A stretch of 32,000 bases of DNA from Pseudodesulfovibrio mercurii (GTDB lineage Bacteria > Desulfobacterota > Desulfovibrionia > Desulfovibrionales > Desulfovibrionaceae): positions 30,001 to 62,000 of the forward strand of contig NC_016803.1 of the NCBI RefSeq assembly GCF_000189295.2. Direction: 5' to 3'. Each line of letters opens with the position of its first letter. Within the stretch, counting starts at the first letter, position 1. The notes under the pieces are model-generated. The model ran no database searches, had not been told where the DNA came from, and saw nothing but the letters and a program-made list of their open reading frames with translations. Shown here piece after piece: positions 7,804 to 14,792 of the stretch. The position numbers and the translations under genes are program-made.

Positions 7804-10800
7804 GTGACTGTGAAATATGTCAAAAGCATAGCCTGGCCCCTGGCGGCCGCCCTTGTCTTGGGACTGATCCTGGCCGATCCCGCCCAAGCCCTGCGGGTGG
7901 ATTTTTCTTCCCAGGGCGGTGGAGATAGGCTGGTTTTCGCTTTTGATTCCGCGACGTTGCCCAAGTCGTCCGTGGCCCGGACAGGCAAGACGTCCGTGAA
8001 GGTCCTGCTGCCTGTCGGCATCTGGGACCGCGAGGCCAGGCCCGAGTCCCGGAATTTCCCCGGCAGGCTGGTCAAATCCATGGCCATCACGGACAACGGG
8101 GTGGAGATCACCACCTCGACCGACGCCTTCGGCTACATCCGCGTGCCCGAGCAGGGCAAACCCGAATTTGTGCTCCAGGTCTATGGCGACCCCATCGGCG
8201 CGCGCTGGCAATCGCCCGACGCGCCGCCCGCCCGGACCGCCCAGGCCGCCCGGATCGCGACCCCGGCCGTGAAACCCCAGGTTGCCCAGGCCGCGAAAGC
8301 CCCGGCGGCCGCGCCGGCGAAAGCCCCGGCCGTTCCGGCTCCCGAACCCAAGGCCCCCACGGCCGCCGATGTGGCCCGCAATCTTTCCACGGTCCGTCCG
8401 GACCAGCCCGGCCCGGCGCGGGCCGAGGCGGACCTGCCGCCCGAGACCCCGCCCGCCGACCGCAAGCCGTTTTTCGCGGTGCCCTATTCCGTGCGCGACG
8501 AGGTTAAGGCCCCCGGCGACCAGACGGCCGCCCCGGCAGGGGGCGCGGCGCCCGCCGAGACCGTGACCGGCGACTATCCGCCCGCCAGCGAACTGCGCTT
8601 CAAGGCGGTGAACAAGTCGGCGGAACAAGTGAAATTCGCGGAACTGGCCGGTGACGCCGGGACCGGTTCCCCGGCGGCCGCGCCGGCCGGGACCGACGCC
8701 GAACCGGCCGCCGAACCGGCCATGCGCCAGGCCGTGACGCCCCCGCAGCAGGGAGGTGCGCCCGAGCCGCAACCAGCCGTCGAAGTTCCTGCCCCGGCGC
8801 AGGAGCCCCAGGCCGCCAACGAGGTGGTCGCCGAGGTGACGCCGCCCCCGGCCCCGGTCGAGGTCTCGGGCGCGGGCCAGGCGGGTGGCGCTGTGTCGCC
8901 GCCTCCGCCGCCGGTATCCGGTGCGGGACAGGCTGGCGGCGCGGTTTCGCCGCCTCCGCCTCCGGCCGCCCCGAGCGCCCCGATCGCCGAGACAGTACAG
9001 CCGGTTGAGCCGCCCGTGCAGCCCGTGGCCGAACAGCCCGCCCCCGAAGTCCAGCCCGAGGCCGAACAGGCCGCGCAGCCGGCAGAGGCCGCGCAGCCGG
9101 AGCAGGCCGCCGCACCCGGCGCCGAGGGAGCGCCCGCCCCGGAATTGTCGCCCGAGGAAAAGGAGAAGGCCCGGCTTGAGGCCATCAACGATAAGCTGGG
9201 CGAGGCCCAGTCCCTGATGTTCAACGGGGCCCTGGACGAGGCCCTGCCCCTGTTCGAGGACATCCTCAAGCAGCCCAAGCTGCCGGACGACGTGCGCGAG
9301 GAGACCCTGTACGCCGTGGCCGACATCAAGAAGCAGCTCGACGCGAACGACCTGCCGGGCAAGTTCGACGAGGTGGCCCAGGCGTACATCCAGGCCATGA
9401 ACGCCAACCTGCGCTCCAACCGCGTGCCGCGCGCCCTGCTCAACCTCGGTCTGCTCAACCTCCAGGTGGGCAACTTCCCCGAGGCCCGGGCCTATTTCAA
9501 GATCCTGCAGGACAAGTACCCGGACGACGACAACATTCCGTCCATCAGCTACTACTGGGGCGAATACTGGTACCGCAAGGGCGACTACAAGAAGGCCGCC
9601 GACCAGTTCCAGCAGCTCATCCAGACCTATCCCGAGCACCAGCTGGCCAAGCAGGCGGCCTATTACCTGGCCGATTCCCTGGACCGGTTGGGCTACCTGG
9701 ACCAGGCCTACCAGATCGTGGACTACATCGACAAACGCTGGCCCGACTACTACATGGAAAACATGGAGTTCCTGCGGTTGGCGGGCGGCGTGGAGATGCA
9801 GCTCAAGAAGTGGGACCCGGCCAAGAATCACTATTTCACCTACTACAACCTGAACCCCGAGGCCGACGGCGCGGACGTGGTCCTGGCCCGCATCGGGGAC
9901 ATCTATCTTCGCAAGAATCAGAAGGACGCGGCCAAGCAGGTCTACGAGAAGGCGGTCAAGGATTTCCCGGACAAGGAGGGCGGGCTCATCGCCAAGATGC
10001 GTCTGGCCGAGGAGGGCATCTACGACGATCCGGCCATGAACGAGATGGTCGATGTCTTCAACCGCCCGTACAACCTCAATCCCAAGCGGGTCTACACCGA
10101 GATCGTTTCGCAGCACCCGGACAGCCCGTTGGCCCCCATCGCCCAGCTCAAGCTGGCCATGTGGCACGCCTTCCACAAGCAGTACCCCGAGGCGCTGACC
10201 GCCGCCCAGGACCTCATCGAGAAGTACCCGGACAGCCCGCTGGCGGACAAGGCCCGGACGCTCGGCGACTCGGTCTTTGTCAGGGCCGTGCCCGGCATGC
10301 TCGCCGAGCAGCGCTACGGCCGCATCGTCCGCTACTGGGAGACCTACGACTTCATCGGCAAGAAGGACTCCAAGGTCGACGACAACACCCGGCTCGCCAT
10401 CGCCACCAGCTACTGGAAGATCGGCCAGCCCGCCAAGGCCCTGGAGCTGCTCAAACCGTATCTGACCAAGAAGCAGATTCCCGGCATCTCGGACCAGGCC
10501 CTGGGCCTGGCCGTGAACATCCACCTGGACCAGCTGGCCTGGCAGGACATCTCGGACCTGGTGTCCATGGCCTCGAAGAACTGGAAGCTCAAGCCCGAGC
10601 AGCAGCGCCAGCTGGACTACGCCAGGGCCATGGCCCTCCAGAACCTGGGCGACAGCCGACGCGCCGTGACCCTGTGGGCCGATCTGGCCAAGGACATGAC
10701 CGTGGACCCGGCCTTCCGGGCCTACGCCATGTACTACATGGCCAAGGACGCCATGGAGCGCCAGGACCTGCGCCGGGTCTTCGTCTATTCCCAGGAGGCC

Positions 10801-11142
10801 CTATCCCTGCTGCTCCAGACCGACGGCGACCCCGAGAAGATCAAGGATGCCGTGCTCATGTCCATCTACGCCACCGAACGGTCCGGCCGCTACGAGGAGG
10901 CCCTGAAGTGGGCCAGGGAGTATGACAAGTACATCTCCCCGGACAACCCCGAGTGGGCCTCCACCCGGTTCAAGCTGGCCCGCATCTACCGAAAGGCCGG
11001 GGCCATGGACGAGTGGAAGCAGCTCCTGCAGGACATCATCGACAAGAAGCCGGACTCCCTCCAGGCCCAGCTCGCCAAGTCCGCCCTGGAGACCTACGAC
11101 CTCGAACAGAAGGCCAGCCAGTACGCCCCCAATCCGGGGTAG
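7804..11142 (+). CDS. Secreted/periplasmic multi-TPR protein with a beta-rich N-domain and a ~330-aa Pro/Ala-rich linker
   Basis: The 1112-aa ORF has a signal peptide MTVKYVKSIAWPLAAALVLGLILADPAQA. Residues ~130-460 are P/A/E/Q low-complexity. The C-terminal ~650 aa contain many TPR-like repeats (e.g. ALLNLGLLNLQVGNFPEARAYFKILQDKYPDD, YYWGEYWYRKGDYKKAADQFQQLIQTYPEH). The GTG start has no strong SD. Confidence 0.8.
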   Translation: MTVKYVKSIAWPLAAALVLGLILADPAQALRVDFSSQGGGDRLVFAFDSATLPKSSVARTGKTSVKVLLPVGIWDREARPESRNFPGRLVKSMAITDNGVEITTSTDAFGYIRVPEQGKPEFVLQVYGDPIGARWQSPDAPPARTAQAARIATPAVKPQVAQAAKAPAAAPAKAPAVPAPEPKAPTAADVARNLSTVRPDQPGPARAEADLPPETPPADRKPFFAVPYSVRDEVKAPGDQTAAPAGGAAPAETVTGDYPPASELRFKAVNKSAEQVKFAELAGDAGTGSPAAAPAGTDAEPAAEPAMRQAVTPPQQGGAPEPQPAVEVPAPAQEPQAANEVVAEVTPPPAPVEVSGAGQAGGAVSPPPPPVSGAGQAGGAVSPPPPPAAPSAPIAETVQPVEPPVQPVAEQPAPEVQPEAEQAAQPAEAAQPEQAAAPGAEGAPAPELSPEEKEKARLEAINDKLGEAQSLMFNGALDEALPLFEDILKQPKLPDDVREETLYAVADIKKQLDANDLPGKFDEVAQAYIQAMNANLRSNRVPRALLNLGLLNLQVGNFPEARAYFKILQDKYPDDDNIPSISYYWGEYWYRKGDYKKAADQFQQLIQTYPEHQLAKQAAYYLADSLDRLGYLDQAYQIVDYIDKRWPDYYMENMEFLRLAGGVEMQLKKWDPAKNHYFTYYNLNPEADGADVVLARIGDIYLRKNQKDAAKQVYEKAVKDFPDKEGGLIAKMRLAEEGIYDDPAMNEMVDVFNRPYNLNPKRVYTEIVSQHPDSPLAPIAQLKLAMWHAFHKQYPEALTAAQDLIEKYPDSPLADKARTLGDSVFVRAVPGMLAEQRYGRIVRYWETYDFIGKKDSKVDDNTRLAIATSYWKIGQPAKALELLKPYLTKKQIPGISDQALGLAVNIHLDQLAWQDISDLVSMASKNWKLKPEQQRQLDYARAMALQNLGDSRRAVTLWADLAKDMTVDPAFRAYAMYYMAKDAMERQDLRRVFVYSQEALSLLLQTDGDPEKIKDAVLMSIYATERSGRYEEALKWAREYDKYISPDNPEWASTRFKLARIYRKAGAMDEWKQLLQDIIDKKPDSLQAQLAKSALETYDLEQKASQYAPNPG
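8863..8964 (+). repeat. Tandem 51-nt duplication inside the TPR gene, encoding VSGAGQAGGAVSPPPPP twice
   Basis: Units 8863..8913 and 8914..8964 encode identical 17-aa peptides but differ at about 10 third-codon positions. Confidence 0.9.
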
Positions 11143-11278: not shown

Positions 11279-12088
11279 ATGGACAGACATCCCATAGTAG
11301 CCGGGCGGTTTTACGATGCGCAGCCGGACGAATTGTACGCCATGGTGGACGGTTTCCTCGGCCTTGCCGAGAAACGGCAGGCGGAACAGACCCTGCTGGC
11401 CATGGTGCCCCATGCCGGGTACGTCTTTTCCGGGGCGGTCTGCGGCAAGACCCTGGGCACGGCCGACCTCGCGTCCACCGTGCTCCTGCTCGGGCCCAAC
11501 CACACGGGCCGGGGCGAGCGGTTCGCCCTGTGGCCCGACGGGTCCTGGCTCATTCCGGGCGGGTCCCTGGCCGTGGACACCGGGCTGGCCGAGGCGCTGC
11601 TGGCCGCCGATCCGGCCATCATGGCGGACACGGCCGCGCACATGGGCGAGCACTCTCTGGAGGTGGTCCTGCCGTTCCTTTTCCGGCTGAATCCGGCCAC
11701 GACCATCGTGCCCGTGTGCGTCTCCGCGCCGTCCCTGGACTCCCTGGAGCGCGTGGGCCGGGCCGTGGGCAGGGTGTTGGCGGACTATCCCGAGCCCGTG
11801 TCCATAGTGGTCAGCTCGGACATGAGCCACTACATCTCCCACGAGGACGCCCGCGAGATGGACGGCATGGCCCTGGAGCCGATGATGACCCTGGCTCCGG
11901 CCCGGCTCTACGACACCGTGCGCTCCCGGCGCATCTCCATGTGCGGGGTCCTGCCCATGACCATGGGGTTGTTCGCGGCCGGGGAACTGGGTGCGGAGCG
12001 CGCGGAGCTGGTGGCCTACGCCACCTCGGGCGAGGTCTCGGGCGACTTCGAACAGGTGGTGGGCTACGCGGGCGTGCTGGTCGCCTGA
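11279..12088 (+). CDS. MEMO1-family protein (AmmeMemoRadiSam system protein B)
   Basis: MDRHPIVAGRFYDAQPDELYAMVDGFL...MVPHAGYVFSGAVCGKT...LGPNHTG...HMGEHSLEVVLPFL...SSDMSHY...GVLPM are the family motifs. GAGGTGGA lies upstream of ATG 11279. The track ORF start at 10922 overlaps the TPR gene. Confidence 0.9.
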   Translation: MDRHPIVAGRFYDAQPDELYAMVDGFLGLAEKRQAEQTLLAMVPHAGYVFSGAVCGKTLGTADLASTVLLLGPNHTGRGERFALWPDGSWLIPGGSLAVDTGLAEALLAADPAIMADTAAHMGEHSLEVVLPFLFRLNPATTIVPVCVSAPSLDSLERVGRAVGRVLADYPEPVSIVVSSDMSHYISHEDAREMDGMALEPMMTLAPARLYDTVRSRRISMCGVLPMTMGLFAAGELGAERAELVAYATSGEVSGDFEQVVGYAGVLVA

Positions 12089-12112: not shown

Positions 12113-12150
12113 TAGTGAAAAATAAGGCCATCCGATGGATGGCCTTTTTT
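12113..12150. terminator. Bidirectional rho-independent terminator shared by the convergent MEMO gene and the glutaredoxin-like gene
   Basis: Perfect 10-bp stem AAGGCCATCC-GAT-GGATGGCCTT, followed by TTTT on the + strand and by ATTTTTCAC on the - strand. Confidence 0.85.
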
Positions 12151-12154
12151 CGTG

Positions 12155-12171
12155 CCCGGCTGACCGCCGGG
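12155..12171 (-). promoter_or_regulatory. Candidate bacterial SECIS hairpin for the glutaredoxin-like gene
   Basis: The mRNA reads UGA CAC GUC UGA UC CCCGGC-GGUCA-GCCGGG. The 6-bp stem begins exactly 11 nt after the first UGA. The apical loop starts GGUC, as in the minimal E. coli fdhF SECIS. Confidence 0.6.
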
Positions 12172-12173
12172 GA

Positions 12174-12386
12174 TCAGACGTGTCAGGAGCCCCGCTTGAA
12201 GCCGACGCAGGCGTGGCCGTCCTCGACGATGACCGGGATGCGCCGCTGCCCGCCGGAGAGCTTCAGCATCTCCTCCATGTTGGCCTCGGAGGCCAGGACG
12301 TCCACGAAGCGCGCCTCGGGGTGGGCGGCCAGGGCCCGCTTGGTGTGCGGACAGGTGGGTTTGCCGTAGATGACGATCTCGCTCAT
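12174..12386 (-). CDS. Small glutaredoxin-fold protein, probable selenoprotein ending Sec-His-Val-stop (conventional call 12183..12386, 67 aa)
   Basis: MSEIVIYGKPTCPHTKRAL...RRIPVIVEDGHACVGFKRGS shows the Grx fold with CPHT in place of CxxC and the cis-Pro IPV motif. The ORF ends at TGA 12183..12185, followed in frame by CAC GTC TGA and a SECIS-like hairpin. GAGGA lies 6 nt before the ATG. Confidence 0.65.
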
Positions 12387-12469
12387 TGCGGTTCCTCGGT
12401 TTTTTTAAGGCTACCACCCGGTCCCCGGTCCCACAACCCCCAGGGGGACGGCCGGGGGAGGGGGGCCGC

Positions 12470-12508
12470 AAAAAAAAACGCCCTGTCCGGCGGGAGCCGG
12501 GCAGGGCG
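12470..12508 (-). terminator. Rho-independent terminator of pnp
   Basis: The minus strand reads CGCCCUGCCCGGC-UCCC-GCCGGACAGGGCG (12 bp with one mismatch) followed by nine U, 22 nt after the pnp stop. Confidence 0.9.
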
Positions 12509-12530: not shown

Positions 12531-14792
12531 CTAGCGGCGGTCGCGGCCACGTCCGCCACGGTCACGGTCACGGTCACGGCCACGTCCGCCACGGTCGCCG
12601 CGATCACCGCGGTCGCCACGGTCGCCACGGTCGCCGCGCGGGGCGGGACGCTTGAAGTCGTCCAGGTTCACTTCCTGGCCGGCCTGCTCCATGAGCCATG
12701 CCTTGCGGGACAGGCGGATGCGTCCGCCGGGCTCCAGGGCGATGCACTTGACCCATACTTCCTGGCCGAGCTGGACGACGTCCTCCACGCGGTCCACGCG
12801 CTCGAAGTCGAGCTGGGAGACGTGCAGCATGCCTTCCTGGCCGGGCAGGATTTCGACCAGCGCGCCGACCTCGAGGATCTTGCGCACCACGCCCTTGTAG
12901 TTCTTGCCGGGCTCGGGCTTCTGGTCGTAGTAGAGGACCATTTCCTTGGCCTTTTCCATGGACGCCAGGGTCGGGGCGAAGATGGAGATCTTGCCGGAAT
13001 CCTCGATGTCGATGTCCGCCTCGGTCTCGGCGGTGATGGCCTTGATGTTCTTGCCGCCGGGTCCGATGACGGAACGGATCTTCTCGGGATCGATGTAGAC
13101 CACGTCCATCTGCGGGGCCAGGGTGGACAGTTCGGGGCGCGGCTTGGCGATGACCTCGGCCATGTGGTCGAGGATGTGGGTGCGCGCCTCCTTGGCCTGC
13201 TGGAGGGCCTTCTTGAGGACGTCCTGCGGGATGCCGGCGATCTTGATGTCCATCTGGATGGCGGTGATGCCGTCACGGGTGCCCGCGACCTTGAAGTCCA
13301 TGTCGCCCAGCGCGTCCTCGTCGCCGAGGATGTCGGTCAGGACGAAGTACTGGTCGCCCTCCTTGCACAGGCCCATGGCGATGCCCGCCACCGGGTCGGA
13401 GATGGGCACGCCCGCGTCCATCAGGGACAGAGTCGCGCCGCACACGGAGGCCATGGACGAGGAGCCGTTGGACTCCATGATCTCGGAGACCACGCGGATG
13501 GTGAACGGGAAGTTCTCCGGGTCCGGGATGACCGGGGTCAGGGCACGTTCGGCCAGGGCGCCGTGGCCGACCTCGCGGCGGGAGGGGCCGCGCAGCATGC
13601 GGGCTTCACCGACGCAGTAGGGCGGGAAATTGTAGTGCAGCATGAACCGCTTGGTGGCGTCGCCGAGCAGGGAGTCGTAGCGCTGCTCGTCCCGGGTGGA
13701 GCCCAGGGTGGCGGTGGCCAGGGAGCAGGTCTCGCCGCGACGGAACAGGGCGGAGCCGTGGGTCTGCTGGAGCACGCCGACCTCGATGGACAGCGGGCGC
13801 ACGGTGGTGGTGTTGCGGCCGTCGATGCGCAGACCTTCCTTGACGATGCGCTCGCGCACGATCTTCTTGGTCATGTCGCCGACGATGTCCTCAACGGCGG
13901 CCAGCTTGGACGGGTCGTCGGGGAACTTTTCGGCCACGGCCACCTTGGCCTTCTGCTTGGCCGCGTCCTTGGCGGCGTAGCGGACCATCTTCTCGGGGGT
14001 GGTCAGGGCCTTCTTGAGGTCGTCGGTGAGGATTTCGCCGAGGTATTCGGCCACCTGCTCGTCGCGCTGGGGCGGAGTGACCTCGAGCTTGGGCACGCCG
14101 ACCTTCTCGCGCAGCTCGTCCTGGATGTCGAAGAGCGGGCGGACCTGCTCATGACCCCAGGCCAGGGCGTCGGCCACCAGGTCCTCGGAGACGAAGTTGC
14201 CGCCGCCCTCGACCATGACCATGGCATCGCGGGTGGCCGCGAAGATCAGGTTCAGGGAGGAGCGCTCCTCGATGCCCTTGTAGGAGGGGTAGAGGACGAA
14301 CTCGTTGTCCACGTAGCCCACGCGGGCGCCGACGATGGGGCCGAGGAAGGGCATCTTGGAGATGTGGCAGGCGGCGGAGGCGCCGGTCAGGGCCAGGACG
14401 TCCGGGTTGACGCGCTTGTCGGCGGACAGGACGGTGGCGATGATCTGGACCTCATCGGTGAAGCCCTTGGCGAACAGGGGCCGGATGGGACGGTCGATGA
14501 GCCGGGAGACCAGGGTCTCGCGCTCGGACGGGCGGCCCACTTCGCGGCGGAAGTAGTTGCCCGGCACGCGACCGGCGGCATAGGCCATTTCCTGGTAGTT
14601 GCAGGTCAGGGGGAAGAAGCCCCGGTCTTCGGCCAGGGGCTGGGTCACGGCGGTGACCAGCACGGTGGTGTCGCCGGACGAGATGGTCACGGCGCCGGAG
14701 GCCTGGCGGGCGTATTTTCCGGTTTCAAGGGTGATGTCGAGATCGCCGACCCTCGCGGTGACGCGGGTGGCGTTGAACGGAATCATCGTCAT
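12531..14792 (-). CDS. pnp: Polyribonucleotide nucleotidyltransferase (PNPase) with an unusual C-terminal RGD/RG-rich tail
   Basis: [35 protein letters not shown]..., two RNase PH domains, KH ([11 protein letters not shown]) and S1 ([15 protein letters not shown]). AGGAG lies 7 nt before ATG 14792. The track ORF start at 14933 is a leader extension. Confidence 0.95.
12534..12638 (-). repeat. Short-period coding repeat forming the PNPase tail (RGD)5[20 protein letters not shown]
   Basis: On the + strand, cggccacgtccgccacggtc occurs twice (12544 and 12577). Runs of cacggt and gtcgccacg units are also present. Confidence 0.85.

Follow-up and report, generated by a model that had tools for sequence, protein, structure and literature searches.

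The window analyzed here, a 32-kb stretch of DNA from Pseudodesulfovibrio mercurii ND132 (formerly Desulfovibrio desulfuricans ND132), carries a small glutaredoxin-like gene on its minus strand (DND132_0039 = EGB13257.1 = WP_014320685.1). The gene shares its strand with the nusA-infB-rbfA-truB-rpsO-pnp cluster, which it directly follows, and it converges with a MEMO1/AmmeMemoRadiSam-B gene (DND132_0038). Its reading frame begins with an ATG (12386..12384), to which a Shine-Dalgarno-like GAGGA (12393..12397) can be read directly from the sequence 6 nt upstream, and runs for 67 codons up to a first TGA (ORF 12386..12183). The end of the gene reads TGA-CAC-GTC-TGA. We propose that the first of these TGA codons (codon 68, 12183..12185) specifies selenocysteine (Sec), that the two sense codons behind it (codons 69-70, CAC GTC, 12177..12182) add His and Val, and that the second TGA (12174..12176) is the true stop. 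On this reading of the sequence, and on the family score given below, the full coding sequence would span 12174..12386 and specify a 70-aa selenoprotein (M1...S67-U68-H69-V70-stop). Beyond the second TGA lies a small hairpin (12155..12171), a candidate bacterial SECIS element by published criteria and by covariation. A bidirectional intrinsic terminator (12124..12146, both strands), with a 10-bp stem and T-runs on both strands, ends the selenoprotein gene as well as the convergent MEMO1/AmmeMemoRadiSam-B gene (stop at 12088). A sequence-only reading had already placed a selenoprotein with a C-terminal Sec-x-x-stop end here, and its coordinates and sequence statements were all correct when we re-read the minus strand.

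The arrangement between pnp and the MEMO1-family gene is kept in all Desulfovibrionaceae loci with enough flanking sequence and offers no functional clue; more distant family members have other neighbors. The interval between pnp and the selenoprotein gene yielded no sigma-70-like promoter and contains, at 12465..12500 on the minus strand, only a weak 4-bp stem with a T9 run, which failed the terminator scan. The 3' end of pnp itself (12531..12650, minus strand) encodes a repetitive tail rich in Arg, Asp, and Gly, an unusual low-complexity C-terminal extension for a PNPase. Upstream of the MEMO1-family gene, a gene at 7804..11142 on the plus strand encodes a protein of 1112 aa whose long N-terminal half is of low complexity and rich in Pro, Ala, and Glu, and whose C-terminal half is TPR-like.

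Both public records of the selenoprotein gene end at the first TGA: the GenBank entry EGB13257.1 is named 'glutaredoxin', and the RefSeq entry WP_014320685.1, named 'UXX-star (seleno)protein family 1', stores the 67-aa truncation. Such truncation by gene callers had been predicted from the sequence, and it extends to the database relatives. The 33 relatives recovered by protein search are 66-68 aa long as called, with the sole exception of P0033 (71 aa), which reads through the UGA. The 'Uxx-star' family named in the sequence-only reading exists, and the window protein passes the cut-off of its family-1 model. Against NF041114 ('UXX-star selenoprotein family 1', an equivalog; cut-off 72 bits), the 67-aa form scores 89.1 bits, and the 70-aa form, with C written for U, scores 97.6 bits and covers profile positions 1-70 of 70. 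On the parent subfamily NF041212 (Uxx_star) the protein reaches 58 bits, below the cut-off of 66, which places it at the Desulfovibrionaceae edge of the family. A recent review (PMC13188914, 2026) lists family 1 as 'Distant Grx-like protein 1' among the predicted prokaryotic selenoproteins and credits it to Zhang and Gladyshev (2008), with family 2 and the fusion families credited to Haft and Tolstoy (2025, mSystems). The family is therefore already curated and published, and the identification of its member in the window is a correct rediscovery, not a new finding. The window protein shares with family 1 the glutaredoxin-like fold of about 70 aa, the C-terminal U-x-x-stop, and the N-terminal C/U-P-x-T motif, but it would contain one Sec (C12, U68), whereas the representative in the review has two (UxxT plus the C-terminal U). 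As for the host, ND132 is listed among 'all Sec-utilizing organisms', with six known selenoproteins, in Table S2 of Peng et al. (2016); the 32-kb window itself contains no sel gene and no tRNA-Sec.

The protein matches the Pfam Glutaredoxin family (PF00462, 32.4 bits versus a cut-off of 22.9). An AlphaFold2 model of the 67-aa core (pLDDT 82.7) shows the topology b1 (residues 4-8), a1 (13-21), b2 (26-29), a2 (34-44), b3 (52-55), and b4 (58-61), followed by a low-confidence or disordered tail (62-67). No helix follows residue 61, so the model has no third helix; 9 residues follow strand 4 up to the C-terminus. The top Foldseek matches in the PDB are all glutaredoxins, the best being cGrx2 of Clostridium oremlandii (4tr1, TM 0.77). 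When the active-site motif C12-P-H-T (12342..12353) is aligned on the glutaredoxin CxxC, specifically the CPHC/CPYC of solved structures (3ic4, 2klx), Thr15 stands opposite the second Cys; the resolving Cys of CxxC is indeed missing, as had been noted from the sequence. Conserved chalcogen residues are confined to position 12, which is Cys or Sec, and position 68, which is Sec and rarely Cys; Cys60 is not conserved. The protein is not a classical dithiol glutaredoxin: it has no CxxC and scores 23 bits on TIGR02181 (GRX_bact) against a cut-off of 90. The C-terminal helix 3 with the GG-x-D-D glutathione-binding motif of the Grx1/Grx3 type is absent from both its sequence and its model.

Behind the second TGA, the RNA reads UC, then CCCGGC (12171..12166), the loop GGUCA (12165..12161), and GCCGGG (12160..12155). 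This forms a perfect 6-bp stem, with exactly 11 nt between the first UGA and the stem. The proposed Sec lies within three codons of the end, and the element is therefore wholly outside the ORF; the order of stop (12176..12174), hairpin (12171..12155), and terminator (12146..12124) agrees with the earlier proposal of a SECIS in the 3' UTR. The terminator, which starts 8 nt further 3', is a separate 10-bp structure; the small hairpin is therefore not the terminator. Published criteria for bacterial SECIS elements (PMC13188914) describe an upper stem of 4-16 bp topped by an apical loop of 3-9 nt, a G at one of the two leading loop positions, usually with G or U after it, a distance of 16-37 nt from UGA to loop, and a minimum free energy of at most -7.5 kcal/mol. 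The window hairpin falls within all four, with a 5-nt loop, a 6-bp stem, GG at the start of the loop, 17 nt from UGA to loop, and -12.3 kcal/mol when folded alone. In 19 distinct homologs, the stems are 5-7 bp, the loops are 3-5 nt with a G among their two leading positions, and the loop begins 17-21 nt after the UGA; one loop G is invariant across the hairpin alignment. A search of the window against Rfam returned no SECIS-type match at either gathering or permissive thresholds, and Rfam apparently has no model for such an element.

Taken on its own, the window sequence is unremarkable in this respect. Folded in context, the hairpin reaches -13 kcal/mol (z = -0.58 against dinucleotide shuffles), and 52 out of 200 shuffles fold as well; such single-sequence folding statistics are uninformative here because the context is 66% GC. 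Among the 750 TGA triplets in the window, 3.9% have a comparable hairpin at 9-15 nt and 3.2% have a stop exactly two codons on, and the two features coincide at three triplets where 0.93 would be expected. The pattern is thus not beyond chance in the window sequence alone and is far beyond chance only across homologs, and the case for recoding therefore rests on comparison.

For this comparison we took 25 loci with homologs of the gene, drawn from both genomic and metagenomic sequence. The 3' end is complete in 24 of them, and 19 are distinct. In all 24 complete loci the first stop, which follows G-[S/T/A/C], is TGA, and a second stop stands exactly two sense codons on; the second stop varies between TGA, TAA, and TAG. 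Every one of the 24 (19 distinct) ends in Val or Ile, written with five different codons: the four for Val (GTC, GTA, GTT, and GTG) and ATC. Preservation of Val or Ile through synonymous codon changes points to selection at the protein level 3' of the UGA. The hairpin is also present in every homologous locus, 11-15 nt after the UGA and always with GG in its loop, so that TGA-N6-stop and hairpin are kept together in 24 out of 24 loci, the pattern that the sequence-only reading had asked of orthologs. The stems themselves differ in sequence (CCCGGC/GCCGGG, ACCAGC/GCUGGU, CUCGAC/GUCGAG, UUCGGC/GCCGAA, ACCUGC/GCAGGU, and GGCUCCC/GGGAGCC). When the 3' ends were aligned with MAFFT alone (A2), four divergent hairpins (L005, L021, L022, and L024) came out of register, and we replaced A2 by an in-register alignment of 15 distinct hairpins (A3), which is anchored on the hairpin and hence biased towards structure. 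In this hairpin-anchored alignment, 96.7% of cells are paired, compensatory double changes occur in four of the six pairs, and none of 500 shuffles reached the same covariation score; sliding the 3' arm reduced pairing to 18-58%. Moreover, RNAalifold predicts the same helix independently. The covariation check that had been suggested for the hairpin thus came out in its favor, with the anchoring of the alignment as its qualification.

At the protein level, an exhaustive profile search of 1.84 billion representatives yielded 457 relatives. Among 142 short relatives, 98 end exactly at the position of the window's UGA (48 with Cys12 and 49 without the N-terminus). Three others are natural Cys forms, P0064 (..GTCGV), P0118 (..GYCGI), and P0104 (..RYCAV), whose Cys aligns on the UGA column. 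All three reach the 72 bits that NF041114 requires (108, 75, and 72.2 bits, respectively; P0104 scores higher on the broader NF041212, at 85.1 bits), and they supply the Cys-containing homologs by which the earlier reading could be judged. A further 13 of the 142 read W-x-[V/I/L] at position 68, and 12 of these 13 also have W at the position of Cys12. We considered a genuine UGA=Trp code in these relatives and rejected it, because W falls precisely on the Cys12 position and position 68 and co-occurs there in 12 out of 13; the entries are evidently TGA codons mistranslated as Trp by code-4 gene calling, as judged from the protein sequences.

Several features of individual family members deserve mention in their own right. 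Trp at both positions 12 and 68 (e.g. GWPYT...GGTWGV) is seen in P0039, P0040, P0045, P0046, P0053, P0057, P0061, P0068, P0071, and others; some of these entries also read through the second TGA. All of them look like double-Sec genes mistranslated with genetic code 4/25. About 49 entries are fragments of 38-56 aa that start after position 12. In three metagenomic loci, codon 12 is itself TGA, within K-S-T-TGA-P-H-T (L014:1534-1536, L015:1534-1536, and L017:837-839); judging by their codons, these would be double-Sec members, as the review records ('UxxT, 2 Sec'). A dedicated second SECIS was sought after the N-terminal UGA in L014 and L017, and the small GG-loop hairpin seen there about 15 nt on occurs equally in Cys forms and so does not tell the two apart. 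Finally, a low-GC member (L021:1501-1713) ends in ..GFNGK-C-TGA-CGA-GTT-TAA, with a Cys directly before the proposed Sec (KC-U-RV).

The resemblance to the SECIS of Escherichia coli fdhF, on which the sequence-only reading had leaned, was confirmed in E. coli genomes: a 47-nt fdhF string matched fdhF at 47 out of 47 positions in 5419 genomes, including UGA-CAC, the 11-nt spacer, and GGUUGC-AGGUCU-GCACC. Common to both elements are the UGA-CAC context, a spacer of 11 nt, a loop with GGUC, and a short G+C stem with G-C/C-G closure. They differ in position and shape: that of fdhF is within coding sequence and includes a lower stem and a bulged U, whereas that of the window is a plain 6-bp stem with no bulge, past the proposed true stop. 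Among selenoproteins, C. oremlandii cGrx1 (UxxC; Kim et al., 2011, cited in PMC13188914), a paralog of cGrx2, is likewise a bacterial selenoprotein with the glutaredoxin fold, but its Sec occupies the first position of a UxxC motif and it has a C-terminal helix, whereas the window protein has CPHT, the proposed Sec on a C-terminal tail, and no helix 3. Other bacterial '-star' selenoproteins, such as KCU-star (NF033934; bioRxiv 10.1101/2022.07.06.499078), have the same near-terminal Sec and the same truncation by gene callers. The Gly-Cys-Sec-Gly tail of mammalian thioredoxin reductase also has its Sec close to the end of a flexible C-terminal arm, in a product that gene callers truncate; it differs in its adjacent Cys-Sec pair, its eukaryotic 3'-UTR SECIS, and its flavoenzyme core, whereas the window protein would use Cys12, within the fold itself, as the partner, and its SECIS is of bacterial type. 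Yeast Grx5 (Cys60/Cys117) has a single active-site Cys, and a second Cys after b4 can close an intramolecular bond, at a place comparable to that of the chalcogen here. Grx5 differs in its CGFS motif, its binding of Fe-S and glutathione, and its full C-terminal helix, none of which is evident in the window protein.

By analogy with E. coli fdhF, we propose that when UGA68 is at the ribosome, the hairpin 11 nt downstream would sit at the mRNA entrance, where its GG-containing apical loop would recruit SelB-GTP-Sec-tRNA(Sec), and Sec would be inserted in place of termination. His69 and Val70 would be added next, the ribosome would stop at the second TGA, and the transcript would end at the terminator. 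The predicted product is a minimal thioredoxin/glutaredoxin fold in which a nucleophilic Cys12 stands where helix 1 begins and strand 4 leads into a flexible tail bearing Sec68. We infer both the actual insertion of Sec and a Cys12-Sec68 bond; most likely, these two residues would form a reversible intramolecular selenenylsulfide. Sec68 would then stand in for the missing resolving Cys, which would make the protein a thiol/selenol oxidoreductase.

The obvious competing account is that UGA 12185..12183 is a real stop, that the gene makes a 67-aa monothiol glutaredoxin-like product, and that the hairpin is an RNA-stability or terminator-associated structure. The ordinary energy of the hairpin for its composition would fit this account, as would the three TGA triplets of the window that show a similar pattern by chance, the lack of an Rfam SECIS match, and the 67-aa form stored in the databases. 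A real stop would, however, leave unexplained why the first stop never departs from TGA although the second varies, and why an untranslated stretch should keep a fixed two-codon gap and a Val/Ile end. It is also at odds with the homologs that end in Cys-x-[V/I], with the distinct terminator downstream, and with a hairpin that covaries and whose GG loop keeps a constant spacing to the UGA, and we regard this account as extremely improbable. A second account accepts recoding and makes it partial: if decoding of UGA68 were inefficient or dependent on selenium, the gene would yield both a 67-aa monothiol form and a 70-aa Sec form, and their ratio could act as a switch responsive to selenium or redox state. 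Sec insertion in bacteria competes with RF2, and the truncated form keeps a complete fold, both of which would allow for a dual output; yet U/C68 and the V/I terminus are strictly conserved, which suggests that the full-length form is the selected product, and we consider such a switch rather unlikely. The homolog UGA pattern, hairpin covariation, Cys relatives, and family score together support the original interpretation of a C-terminal Sec-x-x-stop selenoprotein. DND132_0039 thus very probably encodes a selenoprotein of 70 residues that belongs to the published UXX-star glutaredoxin-like family 1, and not the stored 67-residue protein.

The remaining alternative concerns the function of this selenoprotein. 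A role as a soft-metal ligand has been suggested for the family (PMC13188914), and the Cys12/Sec68 pair could form a two-coordinate soft-metal site, in which case it would mainly bind soft metals or organometals (Hg(II), methylmercury, and arsenic), for trafficking or detoxification and not for disulfide reduction. ND132 is the model Hg methylator, and in one uncultured high-GC metagenomic lineage (L018-L020 and L026) the UXX-star gene lies in a tight co-directional row of marR, hgcA, hgcB, Fer4_16, UXX-star, and a membrane protein gene. The row is seen at L026:4872-8874 (which contains L020), where the Fer4_16 protein has 303 aa and the membrane protein 209 aa; hgcA scores 444.8 bits on NF040863 (cut-off 275) and hgcB 120.8 bits on NF040864 (cut-off 99). 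The UXX-star gene of this lineage scores 103 bits on family 1 and ends in ..GLRGS-TGA-CGG-ATC-TGA. We found no report of an adjacency of hgcAB and UXX-star in the literature searched. The adjacent Cys-Sec of L021 can be set beside this row, since Haft and Gwadz associated the rare CU dipeptide with Hg-related selenoproteins. Against a metal site, the gene follows pnp and is not near hgcAB in the window and 15 related loci, the hgcAB of ND132 (DND132_1056/1057) is far from DND132_0039, and a search for further hgcAB-adjacent members returned the one lineage only. In addition, some carriers, e.g. Maridesulfovibrio salexigens, are not known to be methylators. We therefore hold a mainly metal-binding role to be possible but unlikely. 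The more specific idea, that UXX-star family 1 may be accessory to mercury or soft-metal methylation, with Cys12/Sec68 delivering Hg(II) to HgcAB or removing methylmercury, is a very unlikely one on present evidence, and a redox role through the Cys12-Sec68 pair is the function that we prefer.

The practical value of these findings lies in annotation quality, as both the GenBank and the RefSeq entry lack the residue that is probably catalytic, in an organism that is a genetically tractable model. The problem reaches well beyond ND132: dozens of relatives are misannotated, in that they are cut by a second UGA in the N-terminal part or carry Trp through mistranslation. Bacterial SECIS elements are stated in textbooks to reside in coding regions. 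Contrary to this statement, UXX-star family 1 offers a clean natural case of a bacterial SECIS that lies entirely beyond the reading frame.
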